From assembly GCA_023267475.1 (NCBI GenBank), contig JAHFND010000001.1:1-38577 (forward strand): a stretch of 38,577 bases of DNA, read 5' to 3'. This DNA is from a bacterium (GTDB lineage Bacteria > Patescibacteriota > Minisyncoccia > Phycocordibacterales > UBA5272). Positions 542-37,300 of this stretch are shown here, one piece after another (the stretch's first letter is position 1; each line of letters starts with the position of its first letter). The translations under genes and the position numbers were made by a program. Under the pieces are notes generated by a model. The model was given only the letters and a program-made list of their open reading frames with translations. It did not search any database and was not told where the DNA came from.

Positions 542-2542
542 ATGAAGACGAAAACATTGGCACTATCACAAAAGGATTTCGCCTGGGTAAAGATGACCAG
601 AGCGTATATGGAAAAGACTGCAAAGGCATATATTGAACACAAGAAAAAAGTGTATGCAGAGATAAAAAGTATTCCAAAAAATGAGCGTACATTTTTAAAC
701 ACTCTTTATGCTCTAGAGAGATGTGATGATAAGTTTGATAATTTTTTAGGTAAGATGCACTTACTTTCTGAAGTGTCTACAAATAAAGAAATAAGAGAAG
801 CTGGGAATAAAGTTGCCACAGAATCATCAGAGAAACTCATTGATGTGGAATACGATAAGGGAATGTTTTTGGCTGTAAAAGAATATTACGAAGACAATTT
901 AAAAAAAGAAAAGAAATCATTGCGAAAAGAGGATATTAAACTTCTAGAAGAGACATATCGTGAATATAAAAGAATGGGCTTTGATCTTCCAGATAAAACT
1001 CAGAAGAGATTAAAGACTCTGATGAAAAAATTATCGAAGCTTTCTATTTCTTTTCGTAAGAATATAAATGATTATCAGGATTATATTCTTTGCACGGAGG
1101 AAGATTTGGGCGGTTTGTCAGAAAGGTTTATATCATCTCTACCAAGACATACAGATGGTAGATATATAGTCTCACTACAGTATCCTCATATGTTACCTTT
1201 TATGTCAGAGTCTAGTAATAGAGAAAAAAGAAAGGAGTTAGCTTTAAAAAATCTAAAGAAAGGTGGCATAAAAAATCTAAAAATAATTGAAGAGATAGTA
1301 AAATTGCGTCACGAAGTATCTGAGATATTAGGGTACAAACATCATGCAGATTTTAGAACGGAGAATCGCATGGCAAAGAAAGGTGAGATAGTCGAAAAGT
1401 TTCAGGAAGAGTTATTGAAGAGCATAAGTCCTCTCGTTAAGAAAGATATGGCACTACTTCGTGAACATGCAAAAGCTATTGGTATAAAAAAATTGGAACA
1501 TTATGATGTAGCTTATATTTCTAATCTTCTCAAGAAAAAATTGTATGATGTAAATCAAGAAGAAGAGCGTCAATATTTTGAATATGAACATGTTCGTGAT
1601 GAAATGTTTAAAATGTTCGGCACTCTGTTTGGTATTTCTATAAATAAGACTAATATAAAACTTTGGCACAAAGATGTAAATCTATATCAGGTGAATGATA
1701 AAGATAGAACATTAATTGGATATTTTGCTATGGATATGTTTCCTCGTGAAGGTAAATTTGGACATGCAATGTTATCTGATTTTGTCACTTCTCATGAGAG
1801 TGGTTATAGAAAAGAAGAATATATAGCACCAGTATCTTGTATTGTTTGTAATTTTCCAAGTCCAACAAAGAAAGCACCGACACTTTTGTCTATAGCTGAA
1901 ATAGAGACATTATTTCATGAATTCGGTCACTGCATGCATGCGACATTATCAAGAGTTAGAATTGAATCTCAATCTGGTACTAATGTGGCCTGGGACTTCG
2001 TGGAGACTCCTTCACAGATAATGGAAAACTGGATATGGGATAAACAAGTTATATCAAGTTTTTCTAAGCATTATATTACAGGTAAGAAGATGCCAAGTAT
2101 TTTGATTGATAAGATTATACATGCTAAAAAGTTTTTAGGTGCTTATCATTACACTAGACAGTTAATGTTTAGTAAATTAGATATGGATTTACATACAGGC
2201 AAAGTAAGTGATGCTAAAGGTGCTTGGAGAAAGTTAAATAAGATTTACTTTGATTTAGATTTACCAGAAAAGGAGACTCTTTTTCCCGCAGGATTTGGTC
2301 ACTTAGTTGGTTATGATGCAGGGTACTATTCATATCTTTGGGCTCTTGTGTATGCATGTGATGCGTTCGAAGAATTTAAAACAAAAGGAAATAAAAATGT
2401 AATGAAGAATACTGAGATCGGCATGAAGTGGCGTCGTGAAGTATTAGAGAAGGGAAGTAGTGAAAATGAAATAGATTTAGTTAAGAATTTCTTAGGACGT
2501 AAGCCAAGTAATAAAGCATTCTTGAAAGAAATTGGGATATAG
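542..2542 (+). CDS. M3-family zinc metallopeptidase (oligoendopeptidase / thimet-Dcp-PrlC type)
   Basis: 666-aa ORF with the HEXXH zinc motif in LFHEFGHCMHA. The length and C-terminal catalytic domain layout are typical of peptidase family M3. Confidence 0.85.
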   Translation: MKTKTLALSQKDFAWVKMTRAYMEKTAKAYIEHKKKVYAEIKSIPKNERTFLNTLYALERCDDKFDNFLGKMHLLSEVSTNKEIREAGNKVATESSEKLIDVEYDKGMFLAVKEYYEDNLKKEKKSLRKEDIKLLEETYREYKRMGFDLPDKTQKRLKTLMKKLSKLSISFRKNINDYQDYILCTEEDLGGLSERFISSLPRHTDGRYIVSLQYPHMLPFMSESSNREKRKELALKNLKKGGIKNLKIIEEIVKLRHEVSEILGYKHHADFRTENRMAKKGEIVEKFQEELLKSISPLVKKDMALLREHAKAIGIKKLEHYDVAYISNLLKKKLYDVNQEEERQYFEYEHVRDEMFKMFGTLFGISINKTNIKLWHKDVNLYQVNDKDRTLIGYFAMDMFPREGKFGHAMLSDFVTSHESGYRKEEYIAPVSCIVCNFPSPTKKAPTLLSIAEIETLFHEFGHCMHATLSRVRIESQSGTNVAWDFVETPSQIMENWIWDKQVISSFSKHYITGKKMPSILIDKIIHAKKFLGAYHYTRQLMFSKLDMDLHTGKVSDAKGAWRKLNKIYFDLDLPEKETLFPAGFGHLVGYDAGYYSYLWALVYACDAFEEFKTKGNKNVMKNTEIGMKWRREVLEKGSSENEIDLVKNFLGRKPSNKAFLKEIGI

Positions 2543-2648
2543 CCCAATCTACTTTGTTGTGAAGTATTTTTGTTCCCGCAATGTACTACTTGTACATTTT
2601 AGTCACAAAAATACTTCACGCCTCGTATCTTAGGCTATCTACCAATTT
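2529..2648 (+). repeat. Nested-palindrome intergenic repeat, copy A
   Basis: Outer arms aaattgggatatagcc / ggctatctaccaattt (14/16 bp). 5' box caatctactttgttg. Inner stem gaagtatttttgt / acaaaaatacttc. Central hairpin aatgtac-tact-tgtacatt. 3' box cgcctcgtatct. The 5' arm contains the last codons and the TAG stop of the M3 peptidase gene. Confidence 0.8.
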
Positions 2649-2675
2649 CTTTGTCTTGGTTAGCATTTGACTAGA

Positions 2676-2777: not shown

Positions 2778-4562
2778 ATGCAACAAGAAATTCGCAACAT
2801 CGCAATAATTGCTCACGTGGACCACGGCAAGACCACTCTTACTGATGCTCTTATGCAACAGTGTGGAACAGGGGAAAAGGGTCAGACTATGGACTCTAAC
2901 CCAATGGAAAAAGAGCGTGGTATTACTATTACAGCGAAGAACACTTCTGTATTGTATAAAGGAACAAAAATAAATATTCTAGATACCCCAGGTCACGCGG
3001 ATTTTGGTTCTGAAGTAGAGCGAGTATTACGTTCTATTGATTGTGTGCTTTTAGTTGTAGATGCACAAGAAGGTCCTATGCCTCAGACTCGTTTCGTATT
3101 GAAGAAGTCTCTTGAACTTGGTCTTAAGCCTATTGTAGTTATAAATAAGATAGACAAACCTGCAGCAGATTGCAGTCGTACACATGACGAAGTTTTTGAA
3201 CTTTTCTTAGAGCTTGGAGCAAATGATGAACAGCTTGATTTCACTACAGTGTATGCAATTGGTCGTGAAGGAGTAGCTATGATGAATGTAGATGATGAAA
3301 GAAAAGATCTTACACCACTACTAGATACAATACTTGCAAAAGTTCCAAAAGCAACAGGAGATAATAATAATCCGTTTGTAGCACAAGTGTTTAATCTTGC
3401 ATACGATAACTTTTTAGGACGTATGGCTATATGTCGTGTTTATGATGGAACTGCAAAAGTAGGAGAAGAAATTATTGTAAAAAAGCCAACAGGGGAGATG
3501 AGAAAAGGACGCATCACAAAGATGTATACATTTCGTGGTATAGAAAGAATTGAAGAAGAAATGGCAGAAGCAGGGGATATTATAATGGTTGCCGGATTTT
3601 CTGATATTTATATTGGAGAAACATTCGTTAAAAATGCAGATCAGAATCCAATGCCTGCAATTGCAATAGACGAACCTACAATCTCTCTTGATTTCTTAGT
3701 GAATGATTCTCCTTTTGCTGGCAAGGAAGGAAAATTTGTGACAGGTCGTCAGATTCGTGATCGTCTTGAAAAAGAAATAGAAATAAACGTTGGACTTCAC
3801 GTTGATTTTAATGCTGATAAATATTTAGTATATGGTCGTGGAGAACTCCACATTGCTGTACTTCTTGAAACAATGCGTCGTGAAGGGTATGAACTTCAAG
3901 TGTCACAACCACAAGTTATTTTTCATGAAAAAGATGGAGTAAAAGAAGAACCATACGAAGAACTTGTTATTGATGTACCTACAGAATTCTCAGGTGCAGT
4001 TATGGAAAAGCTTGGTCGTCGTAAAGCTCAAATTACTGACATGCAGGAAAAGCAAGGTATTACTCGTATAAAAGCAGATATTCCTACTCGTGGTCTTCTA
4101 GGATATAGAGGAGAGTTTGTTATAGACACAAAAGGTCTTGGTATTTTGTCATCACGATTTTCAAAGTTTGGTCCGTATGCAGGAGTTATACAGCGACGTC
4201 TTGTAGGTTCAATGACATCTATGGCTACAGGAAAAGCTTTAGCCTTTTCTCTTTGGAATCTTCAAGAGCGTGGAGTTATTTACATTCTTCCAAATACAGA
4301 AGTGTATGAAGGTATGATTATTGGAAACACATCAAAGGGTGAAGAGATGATGGTAAACCCAACAAAAGGAAAGCAACTTTCTAACATGAGATCTTCTGGT
4401 GCTGATGAGGCAATCACTCTTGTGCCAGCGTGGGAAATAACAATCGAGCGTGGTCTTGAAATAATGAATGCTGATGAATATCTAGAAGTTACACCAAAAT
4501 CAGTGAGACTACGTAAGCAACTTTTAACTGAAAGTGATCGCGCTAAAGCAGGCCGAAAATAA
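2778..4562 (+). CDS. typA: Translational GTPase TypA/BipA
   Basis: 594 aa. G motifs AHVDHGKTT, DTPGHADF, NKIDK. BipA-type domain order and C-terminal domain. Confidence 0.93.
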   Translation: MQQEIRNIAIIAHVDHGKTTLTDALMQQCGTGEKGQTMDSNPMEKERGITITAKNTSVLYKGTKINILDTPGHADFGSEVERVLRSIDCVLLVVDAQEGPMPQTRFVLKKSLELGLKPIVVINKIDKPAADCSRTHDEVFELFLELGANDEQLDFTTVYAIGREGVAMMNVDDERKDLTPLLDTILAKVPKATGDNNNPFVAQVFNLAYDNFLGRMAICRVYDGTAKVGEEIIVKKPTGEMRKGRITKMYTFRGIERIEEEMAEAGDIIMVAGFSDIYIGETFVKNADQNPMPAIAIDEPTISLDFLVNDSPFAGKEGKFVTGRQIRDRLEKEIEINVGLHVDFNADKYLVYGRGELHIAVLLETMRREGYELQVSQPQVIFHEKDGVKEEPYEELVIDVPTEFSGAVMEKLGRRKAQITDMQEKQGITRIKADIPTRGLLGYRGEFVIDTKGLGILSSRFSKFGPYAGVIQRRLVGSMTSMATGKALAFSLWNLQERGVIYILPNTEVYEGMIIGNTSKGEEMMVNPTKGKQLSNMRSSGADEAITLVPAWEITIERGLEIMNADEYLEVTPKSVRLRKQLLTESDRAKAGRK

Positions 4563-4564
4563 TA

Positions 4565-4689
4565 AGAAAATCATAAATCATTTTATCTGCGTTGTTAAAA
4601 GAAATTTTTTCTCCACGCGACGTACTATGTGTACGTCTTGGTCGCAAAAATTTCTTTCGCCTAGCATCTAAAACAATTTCTGCTTTTCT
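4565..4689 (+). repeat. Nested-palindrome intergenic repeat, copy B
   Basis: Starts 3 nt after the typA stop. Outer arms agaaaatcataaatcatttta / taaaacaatttctgcttttct (17/21). 5' box tatctgcgttgtt. Inner stem aaagaaatttttt / aaaaatttcttt. Centre gacgtac-tatgt-gtacgtc. 3' box cgcctagcatct. Confidence 0.8.
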
Positions 4690-4710
4690 TCATGCGTGTA
4701 TACTATATTT

Positions 4711-5246: not shown

Positions 5247-5253
5247 ATATTTT

Positions 5254-5580
5254 TTGTTCTATCTATAAGCCGAATTCTGTCCATGCATTTCTGCACTGTG
5301 TAATCATTTATCTGGGATGTTTGTTACCAAACACCTCAAGCGACACTCCCACTTTCGTGGGCACGGTCTTGCACATACGTAAGGATTTAGCCGTTTCATT
5401 TTTATTTTTCAATAAAACTATTCCAAAATGGAACCCTAGTCTTTCGACATTGGCGTTTCTGCTCGCACCTCTATAATTACTTATGATGGGGGTTACCCAC
5501 TACGCTTGTTAATCAAATAACTATGTGTTCGGACTTTCCTCTCTTTACCAAAGTGAAGAGTAATTACCCAAGTAGAACAA
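5254..5580 (-). ncRNA. rnpB: RNase P RNA (bacterial type)
   Basis: The minus strand reads ..ggtaaagaGAGGAAAGTCCGAACacatag.. (universal P4 5' strand) near the 5' end. It reads ..ggACAGAATTCGGCTTATag.. (P4 3' strand) near the 3' end. P1 is formed by ttgttcta (5' end, complement of plus 5573-5580) pairing with tagaacaa (3' end, complement of plus 5254-5261). GC-enriched, with no convincing ORF. Confidence 0.88.
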
Positions 5581-6968: not shown

Positions 6969-8762
6969 ATGGAAATTCGAAACTTTTCAATCATCGCGCA
7001 TATTGATCACGGTAAATCTACTCTTGCAGATAGATTACTTGAAGTTACTGCGACTATAGATAAACGTCACATGAAGGAACAAGTATTAGACAATATGGAA
7101 CTTGAACGTGAGCGCGGTATTACTATAAAAATGACACCAGTGCGCATGGAATATAAATCAAATGACGGGAAAGTTTATAATCTAAACTTGATAGATACTC
7201 CAGGGCACATAGATTTCTCTTATGAAGTATCACGATCACTTCGCGCAGTGGAGGGGACACTTTTACTTGTTGATTCTACTCAAGGTGTGCAGGCGCAGAC
7301 ACTTACTACTCTTGAAATGGCTAAAGAGACAGGCCTCACAATTATTCCAGTTATTACAAAGATAGATAGTCCGCTCGCACACGTAGAAGATGTACAAGAT
7401 GAAATTATAGAAATGCTTCATTGTAAACGTGAAGATATCATTGCTGTGTCTGGTAAGACTGGTGAAGGTGTAAAAGAATTGATTGAAGAAATAATAAAAA
7501 GAGTACCTGCTCCAAAGAGTGAATATGTAGAAGATACAGGCAAGCAAACACGCGCACTTATTTTCGATTTTGAATATAGTAATCATATGGGAGTTATTTT
7601 GTATGTGAGAGTTCTTGATGGAAATGTGAAAGCAGGGGACACATTACTTTTTACACAATCAGAACATAAGTTTATTATTCGAGAAGTAGGTACATTTTCG
7701 CCAGAAAAGAAAGAAAAAGATTCTGTTAAAGCAGGAGAGATTGGATATATAGTTACAGGCATTAAAGAACCAGGTATTGCACGTGTGGGAGATACTGTGA
7801 CTACTTTTTCTAATCCACTCCCAGCTTTTCCTGGATATGCTGAACCTGTACCGATTGTGTTTGCGTCTATCTACCCTGAATCACAAGATGAGTTTGATGA
7901 TTTAAGAAGTTCACTTTCAAAATTGAAGTTATCAGACTCTTCTCTTACTTTTGAAGAAGAATCATCCGGTGCATTAGGACGAGGATTTAGATGTGGTTTT
8001 CTTGGAATGCTTCACTTAGAAATTGTAACTGAGAGATTGAGACGCGAGTTTGATCAAGAGTTAGTGGTAACTACTCCATCTATAACTTACGAGGTTACAT
8101 TAAAGAATGGAGAGGTGGAAATGGTATATACCCCGATACATTTTCCAGATCATGGTCAGTATATATCAGTAAAAGAGCCGTGGATTATTTTAACTCTTAT
8201 CACACCACATGATTATGTAAGTCCACTTATGCAATTATTCCCACCTCATGAAGCAGAAGTTCTTGAACTTAAAGATTGGGGGCACGACAGAGTGCGTATC
8301 ACACTTAATATGCCACTTAGAGAGCTAATGCGTAATTTCTTTAATGAAGTAAAGTCTGCATCGAGCGGGTATGCTTCTATTGTTTATGAAAAAGGTGATA
8401 TGAGACCAGCAGATGTAACACGACTTGATGTATATGTCGCAGAAGAGAGAGTGACTGCATTTTCTCGTGTTATTCCAGAATACCGCACACGTGAGGAGTC
8501 AGAAGAGGTGGTTGAAAAATTGGAGAAAATCTTACCAAGAGAGATGTTTCGCGTAAAGATACAAGCTTATGTAAGAGGACGCATAATAGCATCACGTTCT
8601 ATTGCTCCGATGAAAAAGGATGTGACAGGTTATATGTACGGAGGGGATATTACTCGAAAGATGAAGTTACGTGAAAAGCAAAAGCGCGGAAAAGACAGAA
8701 TGGAAAGAGAGGGAAAGGTTCATATATCACACGATACATTCCTCAATATGATGAAACCATAA
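6969..8762 (+). CDS. lepA: Elongation factor 4 (LepA)
   Basis: 597 aa. AHIDHGKST, DTPGHIDF, TKID motifs. LepA-specific C-terminal domain (..YGGDITRKMKLREKQKRGKDRM..). Confidence 0.95.
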   Translation: MEIRNFSIIAHIDHGKSTLADRLLEVTATIDKRHMKEQVLDNMELERERGITIKMTPVRMEYKSNDGKVYNLNLIDTPGHIDFSYEVSRSLRAVEGTLLLVDSTQGVQAQTLTTLEMAKETGLTIIPVITKIDSPLAHVEDVQDEIIEMLHCKREDIIAVSGKTGEGVKELIEEIIKRVPAPKSEYVEDTGKQTRALIFDFEYSNHMGVILYVRVLDGNVKAGDTLLFTQSEHKFIIREVGTFSPEKKEKDSVKAGEIGYIVTGIKEPGIARVGDTVTTFSNPLPAFPGYAEPVPIVFASIYPESQDEFDDLRSSLSKLKLSDSSLTFEEESSGALGRGFRCGFLGMLHLEIVTERLRREFDQELVVTTPSITYEVTLKNGEVEMVYTPIHFPDHGQYISVKEPWIILTLITPHDYVSPLMQLFPPHEAEVLELKDWGHDRVRITLNMPLRELMRNFFNEVKSASSGYASIVYEKGDMRPADVTRLDVYVAEERVTAFSRVIPEYRTREESEEVVEKLEKILPREMFRVKIQAYVRGRIIASRSIAPMKKDVTGYMYGGDITRKMKLREKQKRGKDRMEREGKVHISHDTFLNMMKP

Positions 8763-8878
8763 GCCAAAAATTAGTTCAGATGCTAGGCGCGAAAGAAATT
8801 TCGATAGAAATGTACACTTAGTACATTGACCGAGAAAATTCGCATCGCAACAACGCAAATGAAGTAATTTTTGGCTTA
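8760..8878 (-). repeat. Nested-palindrome intergenic repeat, copy C (inverted orientation)
   Basis: Perfect 14-bp outer arms taagccaaaaatta / taatttttggctta; the first arm includes the lepA TAA stop. Read on the minus strand it has the 5' box catttgcgttgttg, the centre aatgtac-taagt-gtacatt and the 3' box cgcctagcatct. Confidence 0.8.
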
Positions 8879-9041
8879 TGGTAGATGATCTGGGTTTACT
8901 TAAGTAACGGTATGAGTAAGAATCCAACCATTCCTATTATTGCAACTAAAGAAATAGCTGCCCAGACGCGATTCAATGTCTTACGGTTTTTTGAAGTGAA
9001 TATCATACTGTATATGTGATAAGCTAGATAATAACAAGAAA

Positions 9042-9718: not shown

Positions 9719-9879
9719 GGCAGGCTCGGTCACAAAATCAGTTTTTCGCTTCACTCAAAACAAAAGATTTCGCGACCCCCATTCGAGTCTGCACGTACGA
9801 CACGCAGGTGTCGTACTCTCCCAGCACAAAATACAAAAAGTGATATCAAACGATATCACTTTTTGTATTTTGTGCTGGG
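9719..9879 (-). repeat. tRNA-Phe-linked composite structure (copy G of the repeat family plus tRNA-derived segments)
   Basis: Perfect 28-bp inverted repeat at 9820-9847 / 9852-9879; its distal arm is the tRNA-Phe 3' end. 9-bp hairpin at 9795-9816. The T-arm-like strands ggcag (9719-9723) and ctgca (9789-9793) are separated by 65 nt. That gap contains the hairpin ggtcacaaaatc (9728-9739) / gatttcgcgacc (9766-9777). Confidence 0.6.
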
Positions 9880-9945
9880 AGGCAGGCTCGAACTGCCGAC
9901 CCTTTGCTCTTCAGGCAAATGCTCTACCAACTGAGCTATCCCAGC
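9873..9945 (-). tRNA. tRNA-Phe (anticodon GAA)
   Basis: The minus strand gctgggatagctcagttggtagagcatttgcctGAAgagcaaagggtcggcagttcgagcctgcctcccagca folds as a canonical cloverleaf. CCA is not encoded. Confidence 0.95.
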
Positions 9946-13893: not shown

Positions 13894-14451
13894 ATGCAAA
13901 AAACAGGAAGCAAAACAAAGAAAGCTAAGCAGTCTAAAATTCTAAAAGAAGGTTCAAAAAAAGTAAGCAAGAAAGTTTCTCCTAATACAAAGAATCTTCC
14001 AGATCATCAATTTAAAAAAGTAAAAGTAAAACGCGGAATGGCGGGATTGGGTCTTTTCGCTGGAGAAGCGATAAAGAAAGGTGAGACTATAATAGAATAT
14101 GTAGGAAATATTTTGACTGCAGAAGAAGCAGATGAAAAGTCTTCTAATATGTATCTTTTTGAAATTAGTAAGAATAAGACAATAGATGGATATCCAAGAT
14201 GGAATCTAGCCCGTTATATAAATCATGCATGTCGTGAGGCTACAAATGCAGAAAGCGATGTGAAGAAAGGTAGAGTATTTATAATTGCGACTAAGGGGAT
14301 AAAGAAAGGAGATGAAATACTTTATGATTATGGGGAAGAGTTTGCATTAGAACATATAGCACCATTTGGTTGTAATTGTAAGGCAAAGAAGCATGAATAT
14401 AAGATGAAGGGGCAGGCGGAAGTGGAAGCAGAGAAAAAAGCTAAAAAATAG
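13894..14451 (+). CDS. SET-domain protein lysine methyltransferase with lysine-rich tails
   Basis: 185 aa. SET core GLGLFAGEAIKKGETIIEYVG..., NHAC (YINHACREATNAE), ELLYDYG-type motif (DEILYDYGEEF). Cys-containing post-SET-like end (FGCNCKAKKH). K-rich N- and C-termini. Confidence 0.8.
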   Translation: MQKTGSKTKKAKQSKILKEGSKKVSKKVSPNTKNLPDHQFKKVKVKRGMAGLGLFAGEAIKKGETIIEYVGNILTAEEADEKSSNMYLFEISKNKTIDGYPRWNLARYINHACREATNAESDVKKGRVFIIATKGIKKGDEILYDYGEEFALEHIAPFGCNCKAKKHEYKMKGQAEVEAEKKAKK

Positions 14452-14514: not shown

Positions 14515-14588
14515 TAAAATCTATGTCTAATCTTTTATACTTATGCAATTGCTTCGCATATGCGATATGTAAAAATTATAAAAATAAA

Positions 14589-14619
14589 TATAAAAAATAA
14601 AAATATAAAAAATAAAAAA
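14589..14619. repeat. AT-only 15-bp tandem repeat (tataaaaaataaaaa x2)
   Basis: Units at 14589-14603 and 14604-14618, inside a longer all-A/T stretch (about 14570-14619). Confidence 0.7.
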
Positions 14620-14620
14620 G

Positions 14621-14754: not shown

Positions 14755-14835
14755 ATGGCAAAGAAGAAGAAAGCTGCTAAGAAGTCACATAAGAAGAAGG
14801 CTACTAAGAAGCGAAAGTCAGCAAAGCGATCATAA
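14755..14835 (+). CDS. 26-aa lysine-rich micro-protein MAKKKKAAKKSHKKKATKKRKSAKRS
   Basis: ATG at 14755, TAA at 14833-14835. It is followed at once by a strong terminator (14846-14886) and preceded by the 14-bp palindrome ctcaaaattttgag (14729-14742). Too short for the ORF track, so coding status is unproven. Confidence 0.4.
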   Translation: MAKKKKAAKKSHKKKATKKRKSAKRS

Positions 14836-14845
14836 TCGCCTAGCA

Positions 14846-14886
14846 AAAGAAAGCAACCGCTCCCACGGTTGCTTTCTTTTTGTTTT
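14846..14886 (+). terminator. Strong intrinsic terminator
   Basis: aaagaaagcaaccg-ctccca-cggttgctttcttt (14-bp stem) followed by ttgttttt. Confidence 0.8.
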
Positions 14887-15007
14887 TGCCAAAAATTGTC
14901 TCATCTACTTTGTCGCTAAGAAATTTTTATCATCAACGTACTAGTGTGTACGTTTATTTCAAAAAATTTCTATGCTTCGCGTATCTAAGACAATTTTTGG
15001 CAAAAAC
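14882..15007 (+). repeat. Nested-palindrome intergenic repeat, copy D
   Basis: Perfect 20-bp outer arms gtttttgccaaaaattgtct / agacaatttttggcaaaaac. 5' box catctactttgtcg. Inner stem agaaattttt / aaaaatttct. Centre aacgtac-tagtgt-gtacgtt. 3' box ttcgcgtatct. Confidence 0.85.
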
Positions 15008-15075
15008 AATACACTGATATCTGACATGTTTTAATACTTAAAAAAGACCCCTATTTATGATATAATAGTCCGACA

Positions 15076-23791: not shown

Positions 23792-23881
23792 TGGCGGAGA
23801 GAGTGGGATTCGAACCCACGGACCTAATAAAAGGTCGACGGTTTAGTAAACCGTTGATTTAAACCACTCATCCATCTCTCC
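23792..23881 (-). tRNA. Type II (long variable arm) tRNA, Ser-like, anticodon ACU; CCA encoded
   Basis: Minus strand: ggagaga tg gat gagtggtttaa atc a acggt ttACTaa accgt cgaccttttattaggtcc gtggg ttcgaat cccac tctctcc g cca. The layout is collinear with E. coli tRNA-Ser. Confidence 0.8.
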
Positions 23882-23905: not shown

Positions 23906-23995
23906 TGGCGGAGACGATGGGATTTGAACCCATGAGGGGCGTGAACCCCTGCCTCGTTAGCAGTGAGGTGCCTTCGACCACTCAGCCACGTCTCC
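23906..23995 (-). tRNA. tRNA-Ser (anticodon GCU), CCA encoded
   Basis: Minus strand: ggagacg tg gct gagtggtcgaa ggc a cctca ctGCTaa cgagg caggggttcacgcccctc atggg ttcaaat cccat cgtctcc g cca. Extended -10 TGtTAGAAT lies about 11 nt upstream. Confidence 0.92.
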
Positions 23996-28432: not shown

Positions 28433-28768
28433 ATGCAACTTCCATCATTTTTTGTACAAAAGAAAACCTTAGTAGTAGAGACTATAGTTTTAGTTATATT
28501 TCTTGTTGGAGTTTATTATCTGTACACAATATTTAGTGAACAAACTCCAGTAGCTACAAGTTCACAAAATAACCAACTATTAGGCCAAAATCTTACACTT
28601 TTTTTGAAAGCAGAAAGTCAGGATAAATTGTCATTCGATACTTCTTCATTCATGAGTCAGCCTCTTATTTCGCAACTACAAGATTTTACTGAGACAATAT
28701 TGCCAGCATCTTCTCGTGGAAGAGACGATCCATTTGCACCTTATGCTTTTACTAGATCTATTCGTTAG
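28433..28768 (+). CDS. Small bitopic protein with C-terminal RGRDDPFAPY motif (PilP-like position)
   Basis: 111 aa with an N-terminal TM segment. It overlaps the pilB start by 26 nt, which suggests translational coupling. Confidence 0.4.
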   Translation: MQLPSFFVQKKTLVVETIVLVIFLVGVYYLYTIFSEQTPVATSSQNNQLLGQNLTLFLKAESQDKLSFDTSSFMSQPLISQLQDFTETILPASSRGRDDPFAPYAFTRSIR

Positions 28769-30503
28769 TCAAAATAAATTAACTGAACTTGAAGCAAAAG
28801 ATATTGAATCTGATCTTTCGCTTCGTGATGACATGCTTGTGGATACTGCTTTGCTTCAGAAGGGTATTAAGTCAGACGAAGTTACTGAAGTGAGAAGTGT
28901 CTTATATGGACTACCTATTTATAAAAATGAAATACCAGAGGATAAGGAACTTACAAAATATATAAGTGTCACTCAGTCTAAGCAGTTACTCGCAGTACCT
29001 ATAGAATTAAAAGATGGAGTATTGTCTGTGGGGGTAGTGGATCCAGAGCATGCAAATGTGTTAGATAGTTTACAATTTTTATTTGGTACAGATCATCAGG
29101 CTTATAAAGTTTATTTAATAACTTATGATGCATACAAGAAACATTTTGGAATAGTAGAGTCTGATAATAATACTTCAGACATTAAAGCGTCTCTTACAGG
29201 AAAAGTAGATGAAGGGAAAGAGATATCTTATATATCAAAAGATGATACACAAGAAAAAGAGAAAGAGGGTCTAAATGAAAATATGGATTTGTCAGATGTC
29301 TCAGGGTTACTTGATGAAGGGTTAGCGAAACTACCCATACCAGATATTTTTAGTGCGATACTTCGTTATGCTATAGACAATGGTGCCAGTGATATTCACA
29401 TAGAGCATATAGGTACTGCAGTTAGAGCACGTGTTCGAATGGATGGACAACTAGAAACAATTACAACTCTCCCAGTAAAAATGCATCCTATGCTTGTGGC
29501 ACGTATAAAGATTCTTTGTTCTATAAAACTCGATGAAAAGAGAAAGCCACAAGACGGAAGATTCAGTACTAAATTTGGTGATCATACAATAGATTATCGT
29601 GTGTCTACTTTTCCTGGATATTATGGTGAGAAAGTAGTGCTTCGTATTTTGGATAGCTATAAAGGAGTCCGTCCTATTGATACTCTAGGTTTTAGAGATC
29701 AACAAATGAAAGAAATTCGTGAAGCCCTTGCTCGTCCATATGGAATGATACTAATCTGTGGACCTACAGGATCTGGAAAGACAACTACTCTTTATTCGAT
29801 GTTGAATGAAATCGATCGAGAACACAGAAATGTGGTTTCTCTTGAAGATCCAATAGAATATAATGTGCCCTCAATGAATCAATCTCAAGTTTTTCCAGAG
29901 ATTGGATATACATTCGCTTCTGGTCTTCGTTCTATTTTACGTCAAGATCCTGACGTAATCATGGTGGGAGAAATTCGTGATGCTGAAACTGCACAGCTTG
30001 CCATTCAAGCAGCTCTAACTGGTCACTTAGTGTTCTCTACTATTCACACTAATACTGCAATCGGTGTAGTAACTCGTTTGTTAGATATGGGTATAGAACC
30101 ATATCTTATTGCTCCAACTATTATTGCAACAATTGGACAGAGACTTTCAAGACAAATTGCTGAAGGATGTGCAGTTCCTATGCAGATGACAGCAGGACTT
30201 ACAGAGATGGTGAATGAATCATTTAAAGATTTGCCAGACGAATTTAAAAAGAATTTTCCACTAGATAAACCACTAAATGAAGCAAAACCAAATGTTAAAT
30301 TTGCGAATGGTATGAAGGGAAGAGTGCCAGTGTTTGAAGTTTTGACATTCACTCAAGACATAGAAGAAGCTGTACTACATAGTAAAGGAGAAGAAGAGAT
30401 ATGGAAATTGGCGCGTGCAAATGGAATGATAACTATGAAAGAAGATGCGATTATAAAGTGTATTGAGGGTGTTATACCGTTTGTCGAAATAAACGAACTA
30501 TAA
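28743..30503 (+). CDS. pilB: Type IV pilus extension ATPase PilB (GspE family)
   Basis: Walker A GPTGSGKTTT, Asp box, Walker B DVIMVGEIRD, His box. N-terminal GSPII-type domain. The start is uncertain: ATG 28743 or GTG 28716. Confidence 0.92.
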   Translation: MLLLDLFVSQNKLTELEAKDIESDLSLRDDMLVDTALLQKGIKSDEVTEVRSVLYGLPIYKNEIPEDKELTKYISVTQSKQLLAVPIELKDGVLSVGVVDPEHANVLDSLQFLFGTDHQAYKVYLITYDAYKKHFGIVESDNNTSDIKASLTGKVDEGKEISYISKDDTQEKEKEGLNENMDLSDVSGLLDEGLAKLPIPDIFSAILRYAIDNGASDIHIEHIGTAVRARVRMDGQLETITTLPVKMHPMLVARIKILCSIKLDEKRKPQDGRFSTKFGDHTIDYRVSTFPGYYGEKVVLRILDSYKGVRPIDTLGFRDQQMKEIREALARPYGMILICGPTGSGKTTTLYSMLNEIDREHRNVVSLEDPIEYNVPSMNQSQVFPEIGYTFASGLRSILRQDPDVIMVGEIRDAETAQLAIQAALTGHLVFSTIHTNTAIGVVTRLLDMGIEPYLIAPTIIATIGQRLSRQIAEGCAVPMQMTAGLTEMVNESFKDLPDEFKKNFPLDKPLNEAKPNVKFANGMKGRVPVFEVLTFTQDIEEAVLHSKGEEEIWKLARANGMITMKEDAIIKCIEGVIPFVEINEL

Positions 30504-30506
30504 GTT

Positions 30507-30621
30507 GTCTATAAAATAAGCAATTATTTCGTTGGAAGAATTTTTTGTTCCCACAATGTACTATGTGTACATTTTAGTCACAAAAAATTCTTCCGCCTCG
30601 TACTAATCTTATTTTCTAAAC
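30507..30621 (+). repeat. Nested-palindrome intergenic repeat, copy E
   Basis: Starts 4 nt after the pilB stop. Outer arms gtctataaaataag / cttattttctaaac (12/14). 5' box ttatttcgttgg. Inner stem gaagaattttttgt / acaaaaaattcttc. Centre aatgtac-tatgt-gtacatt. 3' box cgcctcgtacta. Confidence 0.8.
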
Positions 30622-30707
30622 AAATGAATTCTATAAAATATTGACTATCAACTGCCCTATGTTAGTTATGCAATTGTTTTTCATAACTCGCTTGTTATAC
30701 TAAAAAT

Positions 30708-36492: not shown

Positions 36493-37122
36493 ATGAAATT
36501 ATTAAAATATCTAAAACAAAAGAAAAATGAAAGAGGATTTATTTTACCCCTTACACTTCTTGTCTGTTCAATAATTTTAACTGTCGCGACAGGAATTTCT
36601 GTAATTCTTATAAAAGAATTGTATTTTTCAAAAGTCTCTCGTGATAGTCAGCTCGCTTATTATTCAGCAGATACTGCCATGATGTGTGCTGTTATGATAG
36701 ATGGAACTTACATTGATCCGTCGACGGGTTTAGGTATTTTCCCATACGGCGCTGCCACAGATCCACAGTCTGAAATGTCTGCAGTGTTGGATAAAGTAAA
36801 CTTACAGCGTCAAGAACGTAATCTCTCTAATATCTTTTTATCAGATATAAAATGCGCAACTTCTGCAATTTTTGATCAAACAATCTCTGGATTTAGTTCT
36901 GTTGCTTTTTCAAGAACTAACTCAGCAGGTCAAGTAGAGATGGGAAAGACTTCTACTTTTAATATGCGAATGGATTTAGGTGATGGTACCGTGCGTTGTG
37001 CCACAGTTCTTATATCTAAAACAGATAAATATAGACAAATTATTGCTAGAGGGTTTGCTGGATGTGATGGTCAAGCTCGTAATATTGAAAGAGCTATTAT
37101 CAATACTACAGAAGTAAAATAA
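36493..37122 (+). CDS. PilX/GspK-like minor pilin lacking Glu+5
   Basis: ERG|FILPLTLLVCSIILTV. A hydrophobic N-terminus without the conserved Glu, as in PilX-type tip pilins. 209 aa. Confidence 0.65.
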   Translation: MKLLKYLKQKKNERGFILPLTLLVCSIILTVATGISVILIKELYFSKVSRDSQLAYYSADTAMMCAVMIDGTYIDPSTGLGIFPYGAATDPQSEMSAVLDKVNLQRQERNLSNIFLSDIKCATSAIFDQTISGFSSVAFSRTNSAGQVEMGKTSTFNMRMDLGDGTVRCATVLISKTDKYRQIIARGFAGCDGQARNIERAIINTTEVK

Positions 37123-37124
37123 AT

Positions 37125-37245
37125 AAATTAATAAAACTTTTTATCTACTTTGTCGTCACGAAATTTTTCTCATTCAATGTAGGATTATTACATTTTCTTC
37201 AAAAAATTCCTATGCTTCGCGTATATAAAGCAGTTTTATTAATTT
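37125..37245 (+). repeat. Nested-palindrome intergenic repeat, copy F
   Basis: Starts 3 nt after the stop at 37122. Perfect 14-bp outer arms aaattaataaaact / agttttattaattt. 5' box tatctactttgtcg. Centre aatgtag-gatta-ttacatt. 3' box ttcgcgtatat. Confidence 0.8.
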
Positions 37246-37300
37246 ACAATGAATTCTGTTTTAGCCCTTATTTACAAGTGTTTTATGGTATAATGTGTAA

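Follow-up and report, generated by a model that had tools for sequence, protein, structure and literature searches.

The window analysed here, a stretch of 38,577 nucleotides from contig JAHFND010000001.1 (assembly GCA_023267475.1) of a bacterium of the Patescibacteriota, carries six copies (A to F) of a long palindromic repeat, which probably represents a widespread non-autonomous mobile element resembling transposable elements of the miniature inverted-repeat type (MITEs) and repetitive extragenic palindromic (REP) sequences. Its core is found from bacteria of the candidate phyla radiation (CPR) to sulfate reducers, and the element has moved or been lost among close relatives and has moved between phyla. 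Three of its traits are unusual, namely a core shared across phyla, tight placement at stop codons in sense orientation, and outer arms of fixed length that are rebuilt from the end of the neighbouring gene. The repeats were first described in an earlier note made from the letters of the window alone; the observation made there is confirmed, and the interpretation is partly supported. The family is apparently uncatalogued, in agreement with the remark in that note that it was not recognised as a described repeat family.

The conserved unit comprises about 105 nt and five parts, namely a terminal inverted repeat (TIR), two boxes, an inner stem and an apical hairpin. The TIR is an 11-nt sequence, AAAATTRCTTC, found at positions -11 to -1 of the left arm, next to the ATCT box. 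Within it lies the core, in which the 5' box YCTRCKTYGTTG and the 3' box CGCCTYGYA flank an inner stem that covaries and that encloses the hairpin CAAYGTAC-loop-GTACRTT. The inner stem is free in sequence and retains its complementarity, while the apical hairpin has the consensus CAAYGTAC-N5-GTACRTT (given as CAAYGTAC-N5-GTACRTYT in the plan across the 89 loci discussed below). As the boxes, ATCT-RC-KTYGTTG and CGCCTYGYA-TCT, are mutually non-complementary, the element has polarity. ATCT is directly repeated at both borders of the core, and the tetranucleotide of the 5' box is CTAC in about half of the copies and CTGC in the others. In more distant BipA-syntenic contigs, the covariance model detected members that share these boxes but differ in the apical hairpin, and the boxes are thus the most conserved part. 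RNAalifold, when run on the raw MAFFT alignment, recovered the apical hairpin alone, and the structure was therefore specified by hand.

For copies A, D and E the inner stems agree with the original description, as do the central hairpins with their AT/GC exchange, and several other details of that description required revision. The 3' box proposed there, CGCCTMGYATCT, is present in A, B and C and differs by 4 nt in E; it is absent from D and F, which carry the subfamily variant GCTTCGCGTATCT/GCTTCGCGTATAT, also given as GCTTCGCGTAT. The boxes are unpaired only in part, as the T[A/G]C of the 5' box pairs and covaries with the G[T/C]A of the 3' box (AU 19, GC 19 and UA 9 among 51 family members). 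The outer arms, which had been considered unrelated, share the consensus AAAATTRCTTC over the 11 nt beside the ATCT box, and only their distal 8-11 nt are locus-specific. In the Patescibacteria-type copies these distal nucleotides are not conserved between copies; they mirror the gene end, coding bases included, and form perfect or near-perfect inverted repeats, each unique to its locus. The outer arm measures 19-23 nt in 31/31 measured copies, whether it is element-derived or native coding sequence.

All six copies in the window lie at the coordinates originally reported, with palindromes that are slightly longer in each case when delimited by arm complementarity. Each forms a single long hairpin with a minimum free energy of -20 to -51 kcal/mol and a fold z-score against dinucleotide shuffles of -3.7 (F) to -10.6 (D). 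The central-hairpin pattern has 4 matches in the window against 0.01 expected, and a family profile built from the 51 members detects exactly these six copies, with E-values of 4.7e-14 to 3.6e-24 and a next match at E 2.6; their covariance-model scores range from 67 to 114 bits. The copy density is thus about one per 6 kb, in a window that contains housekeeping genes and a type IV pilus cluster.

Outside this genome, the exact central-hairpin pattern identified 89 loci in 185,579 species genomes, where about 4 would be expected by an estimate from the collection size, and most of these loci share the boxes and stems. The hosts include Saccharibacteria, Nomurabacteria, Paceibacterota, Gracilibacteria and groundwater metagenome-assembled genomes (MAGs), as well as Desulfobacterales/Thermodesulfobacteriota, Geobacterales (Oryzomonas) and Syntrophomonas, together with MAGs labelled Enterobacteriaceae and Pseudomonadota. 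More than 110 family matches were found in about 1.4 Mb of sampled loci (those outside the window are given L numbers below). The element is 119-131 nt in size and has no coding capacity, and the Desulfobacterales, Geobacterales and 'Enterobacteriaceae'-MAG subfamilies have conserved TIRs 19-23 nt long. Rfam 15 at its gathering threshold reported only RNase P, tRNAs and rRNA in the window and in 15 loci of other subfamilies, and its E-value mode returned only sub-threshold miRNA-type hairpin matches for copies A and B. A blastn search of PLSDB with two subfamilies gave no match, IMG/VR had 0 matches to the central pattern, and the element is described neither in a 2024 review of prokaryotic MITEs (PMC10969869) nor in the literature searched on MITEs and palindromic repeats in Patescibacteria, Saccharibacteria, CPR and Geobacter. 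A catalogued REP or MITE family with a cognate transposase, which the earlier note named as a finding that would refute it, was not encountered in these databases and publications.

For the Desulfobacterales, the subfamily is a classical MITE: near-identical copies occur at many loci, also at contig ends, and have conserved termini, GAYGGYYTCGTAAAAAGTC, TIRs of 19-23 nt and 6-bp direct target duplications (AAAAAT, AGTTTT, AATCTT, AACATT, AATATT and AAGCTT). Their association with stop codons is weaker (9/34). This subfamily is three-armed (L004-L085 loci of Desulfobacterales/Thermodesulfobacteriota, e.g. L025:4241-4400): after the left TIR and the core, the left TIR recurs in inverted form, and AAATCT and the right TIR come next, with target duplications of the AANNTT type. 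In addition, other MITE types with unrelated interiors carry the same Desulfobacterales TIR (L025:1635 and L084:4178).

For the Patescibacteria-type copies, sites A, B and C proved to be filled, empty or occupied by remnants when orthologous loci were compared, a comparison that the earlier note had proposed. Scanning metagenomes with the BipA of the window yielded 80 syntenic loci, and the relatives compared here have 85-90% BipA identity. The site after BipA (B) is filled in the window, L092, L093, L094 and L100, degenerate in L101, reduced to a right-arm remnant in L095 and empty in L091, L096-L099, L103 and L105-L107; the distance from stop to next gene at the empty sites is 0-40 nt, or about 130 nt in L091. 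The site after the M3 peptidase gene (A) carries a copy in the window and L107, a footprint, ATCTACTTTTTGTATCT, in L095 and none in nine further relatives; the site after LepA (C) is likewise occupied in the window and L107, is empty in six others and is nowhere reduced to a remnant. LepA is three codons longer in 5/6 of the relatives with an empty site C. Three core subtypes occur after BipA, one in the window and L092, a second in L100 and a third in L093/L094. At site C, the window and L107 have common arms, CCATAAG[CA]CAAAAATT, with cores of different subtypes in opposite orientations, the L107 core being plus-oriented and of the other subtype. Two copies on unrelated contigs (L023:5634 and L107:12484) are identical at 49/50 positions inward from AAAAT and unrelated outside, which marks a sharp element boundary. 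The statement that unrelated outer arms argue against a classical MITE is thus not supported, in view of the arm consensus, the Desulfobacterales TIRs with their 6-bp duplications and these orthologous sites.

Remnants and stacked copies were also observed. In L095 (L095:2907-3000 and the M3 peptidase end), ATCTACTTTTTGTATCT is the start of the 5' box fused to the end of the 3' box, and elsewhere in the same locus a lone right arm, AAAACAATTTCTGACTTTC, remains; these remnants suggest that a deletion spanning the base of the hairpin removed the core. Direct tandem pairs 15-100 nt apart are present at L023:885-1113, L028:2726-2964 and L036:4157-4446, and in L093/L094 the BipA stop is followed first by a new element and then by the right arm left over from an older one. 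The tandem pairs and the latter arrangement suggest repeated insertion at one spot.

The covariation of the stems, whose absence the earlier note had listed among possible refutations, is real. In a structure-naive alignment, the paired fraction of cells is 79.3%, compared with 59.7% for shuffles and 34-49% when partners are slid; double-sided changes number 453 against 171, and the observed score was reached by 0/500 shuffles. Its attribution to selection on structure is not borne out, in view of the mismatches, the arms and the core of copy C. The mismatches G·T and A·C are equally frequent (109 and 98) with no strand asymmetry, and the lack of a G·U excess on either strand fits a cause at the DNA level rather than selection on RNA structure. 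In copy A, L092 and L100, the gene-side arm is conserved coding sequence (the M3 peptidase and BipA ends) that is also present in the empty orthologues, while the right arms are reverse complements of those coding ends and are missing there; the far arm must thus have been copied from the gene-side arm. In copy C, the core is flipped between unchanged arms. Template switching between the arms of inverted repeats is documented to homogenise arms, to invert the spacer and to extend an arm from 5 to 16 bp in a single event (PMC8604942, PMC5941160).

A second case in the window of a hairpin formed from an inverted copy of the 3' end of the upstream gene is a perfect 64-nt palindrome at 9818-9881 (minus-strand sense) by tRNA-Phe (9872-9945), with arms of 30 bp around a loop of 4 nt. 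The first of these arms opens with the last ~10 nt of the tRNA (CTCCCAGCAC), and it lacks the family core.

Fold-back copying at the DNA level, either by polymerase template switching or in a self-primed insertion step, with the gene-side arm serving as template for the far arm, is probably the main source of the perfect, locus-specific distal arms, of the seemingly compensatory changes and of the core inversion in copy C. Selection is then needed only for the conserved non-complementary boxes. As template switching would erase such boxes unless they were selected, and as they are kept across phyla, they appear to constitute a functional recognition surface together with the apical hairpin, and these would be the only parts kept by selection, presumably for recognition by a putative mobilising enzyme or a host protein. 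Survival only right behind stop codons may reflect a tiny permissive zone in compact spacers. The consequence for the host might be similar to that of REP, Correia and ERIC sequences, namely a stem at the mRNA 3' end, with termination less likely.

Several results weigh against a mobile element shaped by fold-back copying. The constant arm length is one of them, since random template switching predicts no such ruler; an arm fixed at 19-23 nt is expected under selection for a two-turn helix or from a defined insertion step. It may therefore reflect the requirement of an RNase III-type enzyme for about two helical turns, the minimal substrate of RNase III, or alternatively a self-primed fold-back step of fixed reach during insertion. 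In the orthologous copies downstream of ssb in L067/L054, two mismatches are kept and three positions have changed on both arms (by eye), a pattern that looks more like selection than blanket homogenisation. Flanking direct repeats were not above control for 50 Patescibacteria-type copies including those of the window, and the Patescibacteria-type and Desulfobacterales subfamilies may move differently. Finally, no transposase, integrase or reverse transcriptase gene is present in the window, and no autonomous full-length element was found in the ~1.4 Mb of sampled loci. A parent-element search with solo TIRs and with 5'-box/3'-box pairs 0.4-3.5 kb apart recovered only further MITE variants, some with the same Desulfobacterales TIR, and we know of no parent insertion sequence (IS) for the family.

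The position of the Patescibacteria-type copies is highly constrained, as the strong bias towards gene 3' ends described for the window holds across this group: 38/40 begin -41 to +7 nt from the end of an open reading frame (ORF) on the same strand, with a median of -5. The stop codon usually lies within the basal stem, and the next gene follows at a distance of 3-341 nt. When oriented against the adjoining gene end, 49 copies are co-oriented, 5 opposite and 3 ambiguous, copy C being one of the exceptions. This position might be explained by compact spacers, in which the first bases past the stop are free of promoters and ribosome-binding sites, but compact spacers cannot account for the polarity. 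Placed right after the stop in sense orientation, the element must, judging from the sequence, be co-transcribed with the upstream gene, as a hairpin in the 3' untranslated region (UTR) or between cistrons. A sense-oriented copy with a 168-nt palindrome was also found within an insertion of about 550 nt in the helix-63 region of 23S rRNA (L080:7580-7790 and L083:5250-5450, in MAGs labelled Gracilibacteria and Paceibacterota), and the element is thus tolerated in abundant transcripts. Intervening sequences with long stems in 23S rRNA are classically removed by RNase III.

Such placement is also what would be expected of a host cis-regulatory RNA module, that is, of independently maintained stem-loops in 3'-UTRs or between cistrons that are under direct selection, with stems preserved through compensatory substitution, that are only incidentally mobile, and that serve as an RNase III site, as a barrier to 3'-exonucleases or as a structure modulating termination or ribosome release at the stop. 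This explanation accounts for the sense orientation (49 to 5) and the stop inside the basal stem of most copies, for a constant outer stem of 19-23 bp or about two helical turns, and for boxes conserved across phyla. It would also agree with the persistence of orthologous copies though BipA is just 90% identical, with the three two-sided changes and retained mismatches of L067/L054, and with the copy in the 23S rRNA insertion, of a kind generally known to be removed by RNase III. We nonetheless consider it rather unlikely, because sense-strand G·U pairs are not above A·C (109 vs 98), many close relatives lack the element at the same genes, a single site may host different core subtypes even in opposite orientation, and in the Desulfobacterales the element behaves simply as a multi-copy MITE with a weaker tie to stop codons. 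A mobile element may still affect the transcripts that contain it: the TIRs of Correia elements are RNase III substrates, and ERIC sequences at gene 3' ends alter mRNA stability (PMC10969869), precedents that the cis-regulatory explanation shares. By this analogy the stem of about 22 bp of double-stranded RNA at the mRNA 3' end might, tentatively, act as an RNase III-type site or exonuclease barrier. A role in processing, stability or protein binding, as listed in the earlier note, is possible.

Mobility could also be conferred by an enzyme that reads structure. A single-stranded DNA hairpin moved by an HUH/Y1 enzyme (RAYT or IS200/IS605-like) or another structure-reading enzyme, with a short target that is not duplicated, replication-fork polarity and a self-primed fold-back copy of the upstream flank, would explain why stems are kept as structure and not as sequence around conserved mismatched boxes, why both strands pair equally well, and why Patescibacteria-type copies lack direct target duplications and are strongly biased in orientation. 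Perfect 8-11-bp inverted flank copies are found even at young cores that are 98% identical, ATCT is directly repeated at the core borders, and half of the 5' boxes contain CTAC, which is complementary to the GTAG of the REP type. However, neither the window nor the sampled loci showed a Y1/HUH gene, the element is one long palindrome rather than the two subterminal hairpins of PATE or two inverted REPs, the Desulfobacterales subfamily has ordinary TIRs with 6-bp direct duplications, and L007 and L063 each have two copies in opposite absolute orientations. This mode of transposition therefore appears improbable. In a related scheme, which we regard as doubtful, the enzyme would recognise the core and insert it behind stop codons, and self-primed fold-back would complete the insertion, leaving 8-11 nt of the upstream flank duplicated in inverted instead of direct order, with a stem of constant length (about 22 bp). 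The recognition core would then be the asymmetric boxes and the GTAC-N5-GTAC hairpin, common to Patescibacteria, Desulfobacterota and Firmicutes. If true, fold-back insertion would account for the three-armed MITE of the Desulfobacterales, in which a core would have landed in a minimal TIR pair. To our knowledge, inverted flank duplication has not been described as an outcome of transposition for bacterial elements.

The leading suggestion of the earlier note, an alternative terminator that lacks a T run, is highly improbable despite very stable hairpins directly past stop codons, as the stems are A/T-rich and their surroundings fit termination poorly. No T run follows any stem, as had been stated for all copies, and the element does not conform to the definition of an intrinsic terminator (a GC-rich 5-15-bp stem followed by a T run). 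A canonical GC-hairpin and T-run terminator directly precedes copy D (14845-14880), and another, recognised by eye, lies between copy A and the next gene at ~2715-2765, where the scan gave only a minus-strand site (2749-2726); each belongs to the same gene as the copy beside it. Copies B and E lie within the operon-like, co-directional and functionally linked pairs BipA-DUF192 and PilB-PilT, with the next start 21 and 84 nt away, and termination inside a 23S rRNA gene, where a copy also occurs, would be lethal. The scan found canonical sites elsewhere in the window and none formed by the element as a whole, the sole scored site within a copy being a 6-bp stem at 2531-2548; in favour of a terminator, the scan placed no canonical site close to copy C or F. 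The element is thus probably not a terminator.

Other candidates were rejected. Insertion into a pre-existing palindromic target such as a terminator loop was dismissed, as the empty orthologous sites have no such palindrome and joining the arms would leave every gene end with a perfect 20-bp palindrome devoid of a loop. A palindromic target that had been directly duplicated was dismissed as well, the flanks being reverse complements and not identical. An integron attC site, a retron, a CRISPR/TIGR array and a small-RNA gene were set aside because the context was unfit or defining features were missing, and the Chunjie (178-235 bp) and TIGR arrays met in the literature were judged to be different things.

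In comparison with known systems, a non-autonomous mobile element of this kind is similar to prokaryotic MITEs (Correia/NEMIS of Neisseria, ERIC/IRU of enterobacteria and Chunjie of Geobacter), which are ORF-less, multi-copy sequences of ~100-200 bp. Both have TIRs that fold the whole element into a hairpin, are intergenic and co-transcribed, show filled/empty polymorphism and occur in clustered or nested copies, and the Desulfobacterales subfamily shares their TIRs and target duplications, here of 6 bp. Unlike MITEs, which are known at the genus or species level, the family has a core conserved across phyla, its internal non-complementary boxes rather than its termini are most conserved, its Patescibacteria-type copies have inverted flank copies in place of direct target duplications, and its placement at stop codons is extremely tight. 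No recognisable likeness to the Correia, ERIC or Chunjie consensus is known to us.

The likeness to REP/BIME and REPIN-RAYT systems lies in extragenic palindromes at gene 3' ends and inside operons that are transcribed, that keep structure over sequence and that have a CTAC/GTAG-like tetranucleotide by the stem; REPs stabilise mRNA 3' ends. According to what Liang, Rudd and Deutscher are said to have reported in 2015, REPs at most about 15 nt from a stop codon interfere with translation termination. However, REPs are 20-40 nt long, GC-rich and species-specific and REPINs consist of two inverted REPs and a spacer, whereas the family is a single A/T-rich palindrome of ~125 nt that has CTAC or CTGC instead of an invariant GTAG/CTAC. 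No RAYT/Y1 transposase gene is present in the window.

Integron attC sites are imperfect palindromes of 57-141 nt that directly follow, and are co-oriented with, an ORF and are read as folded single-stranded DNA; as in the family, structure is kept with little sequence conservation and unpaired conserved bases set the polarity. No R''/R' boxes (RYYYAAC/GTTRRRY) were seen by eye in the aligned copies, for which no pattern search was made, and the window has neither an integrase nor a cassette array. Unlike attC sites, the copies have syntenic housekeeping genes (BipA, LepA, SecA, PilB and ssb) and not cassettes as neighbours, and empty orthologous sites retain the gene. PATE elements, derived from IS200/IS605, fit in the lack of target-site duplications in the Patescibacteria-type and in the direct ATCT at both core borders, but not in the single long palindrome or the target-site duplications of the Desulfobacterales. 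The documented outcomes of quasipalindrome correction (PMC8604942, PMC5941160) match what is seen here: distal arms that are perfect, arms templated by coding sequence and, in copy C, an inverted core. Quasipalindromes, however, are anonymous short repeats, while the family is a mobile element with asymmetric internal boxes and arms fixed at 19-23 nt.

Patescibacteria have tiny, streamlined genomes and are thought to be poor in mobile elements. An element that occurs about once per 6 kb and is common to unrelated phyla may be a useful marker of horizontal exchange, as well as a source of RNA structure at 3' ends in organisms that cannot be cultured. The asymmetric conserved boxes point to a partner protein. 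A note of caution also follows, in that 'compensatory' changes in repeat stems can stem from fold-back copying of DNA and not from selection on RNA structure.

Copy A (2525-2652, plus strand) is a 128-nt palindrome with a covariance-model score of 114 bits; its left arm consists of the last 15 coding nt and the TAG stop of the M3 peptidase gene (542-2542), and its right arm is an inverted copy of the left. Copy B (4564-4690, plus strand; 127 nt, 97 bits) starts 2 nt past the stop of BipA/TypA (2778-4562) and ends 21 nt before the DUF192 gene. Copy C (8756-8882, minus strand; 127 nt, 99 bits) has its core in the opposite orientation, and its LepA-side arm includes the CCA TAA of the LepA gene (6969-8762). 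Copy E (30505-30623, plus strand; 119 nt, 93 bits) starts 2 nt past the PilB stop (28716-30503), with pilT (30708) 84 nt downstream, and its boxes, AATTATTTCGTTG and CGCCTCGTACTAATCT, are degenerate. Copy F (37124-37246, plus strand; 123 nt, 67 bits) is the most diverged of the six, starts 1 nt past the stop of the last pilin-like gene (36493-37122) and has the central hairpin AATGTA-GGATTAT-TACATT.

Copy D (14880-15009, plus strand; 130 nt, 88 bits) starts inside the T tract of the canonical terminator that precedes it and ends 66 nt before secA (15076). Its left outer arm (14880-14902, plus strand) is TTGTTTTTGCC followed by AAAAATTGTCTC, the proximal 12 nt of which fit the consensus AAAATTRYTTC. 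In its 5' box (14903-14915, plus strand), ATCTACTTTGTCG, TAC pairs with the GTA of the 3' box, and TTT and the remainder form internal loops. The inner stem (14919-14971, plus strand), AGAAATTTTT/AAAAATTTCT, surrounds the central hairpin, in which AACGTAC (14935-14941) and GTACGTT (14948-14954) enclose a 6-nt loop. The 3' box of the D/F subtype, GCTTCGCGTATCT, lies at 14974-14986 (plus strand), and the right outer arm (14987-15009, plus strand), AAGACAATTTTT followed by GGCAAAAACAA, is the inverted left arm except for the first 1-2 nt, which are unpaired in the fold; the distal 11 nt are perfect. Just upstream of copy D is a lysine-rich ORF of 26 codons (14757-14837; MAKKKKAAKKSHKKKATKKRKSAKRS) with a canonical terminator of its own. 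An A/T stretch of low complexity lies before it (14560-14620), and the AAGAAGAAAGC motif is found again at 443-464.

A few other features of the window may be of interest. A 185-aa SET-domain protein (PF00856, E 5e-23) is encoded at 13894-14451 in a bacterial housekeeping neighbourhood. Two tRNA-Ser genes are adjacent on the minus strand (23792-23881 and 23906-23995), and of the anticodons assigned to them by ARAGORN one is ACT, which is unusual in bacteria, and the other GCT. The RNase P RNA of class A (5250-5580, minus strand) scores 108 bits against an Rfam gathering threshold of 100, a low score that fits a divergent, reduced lineage.

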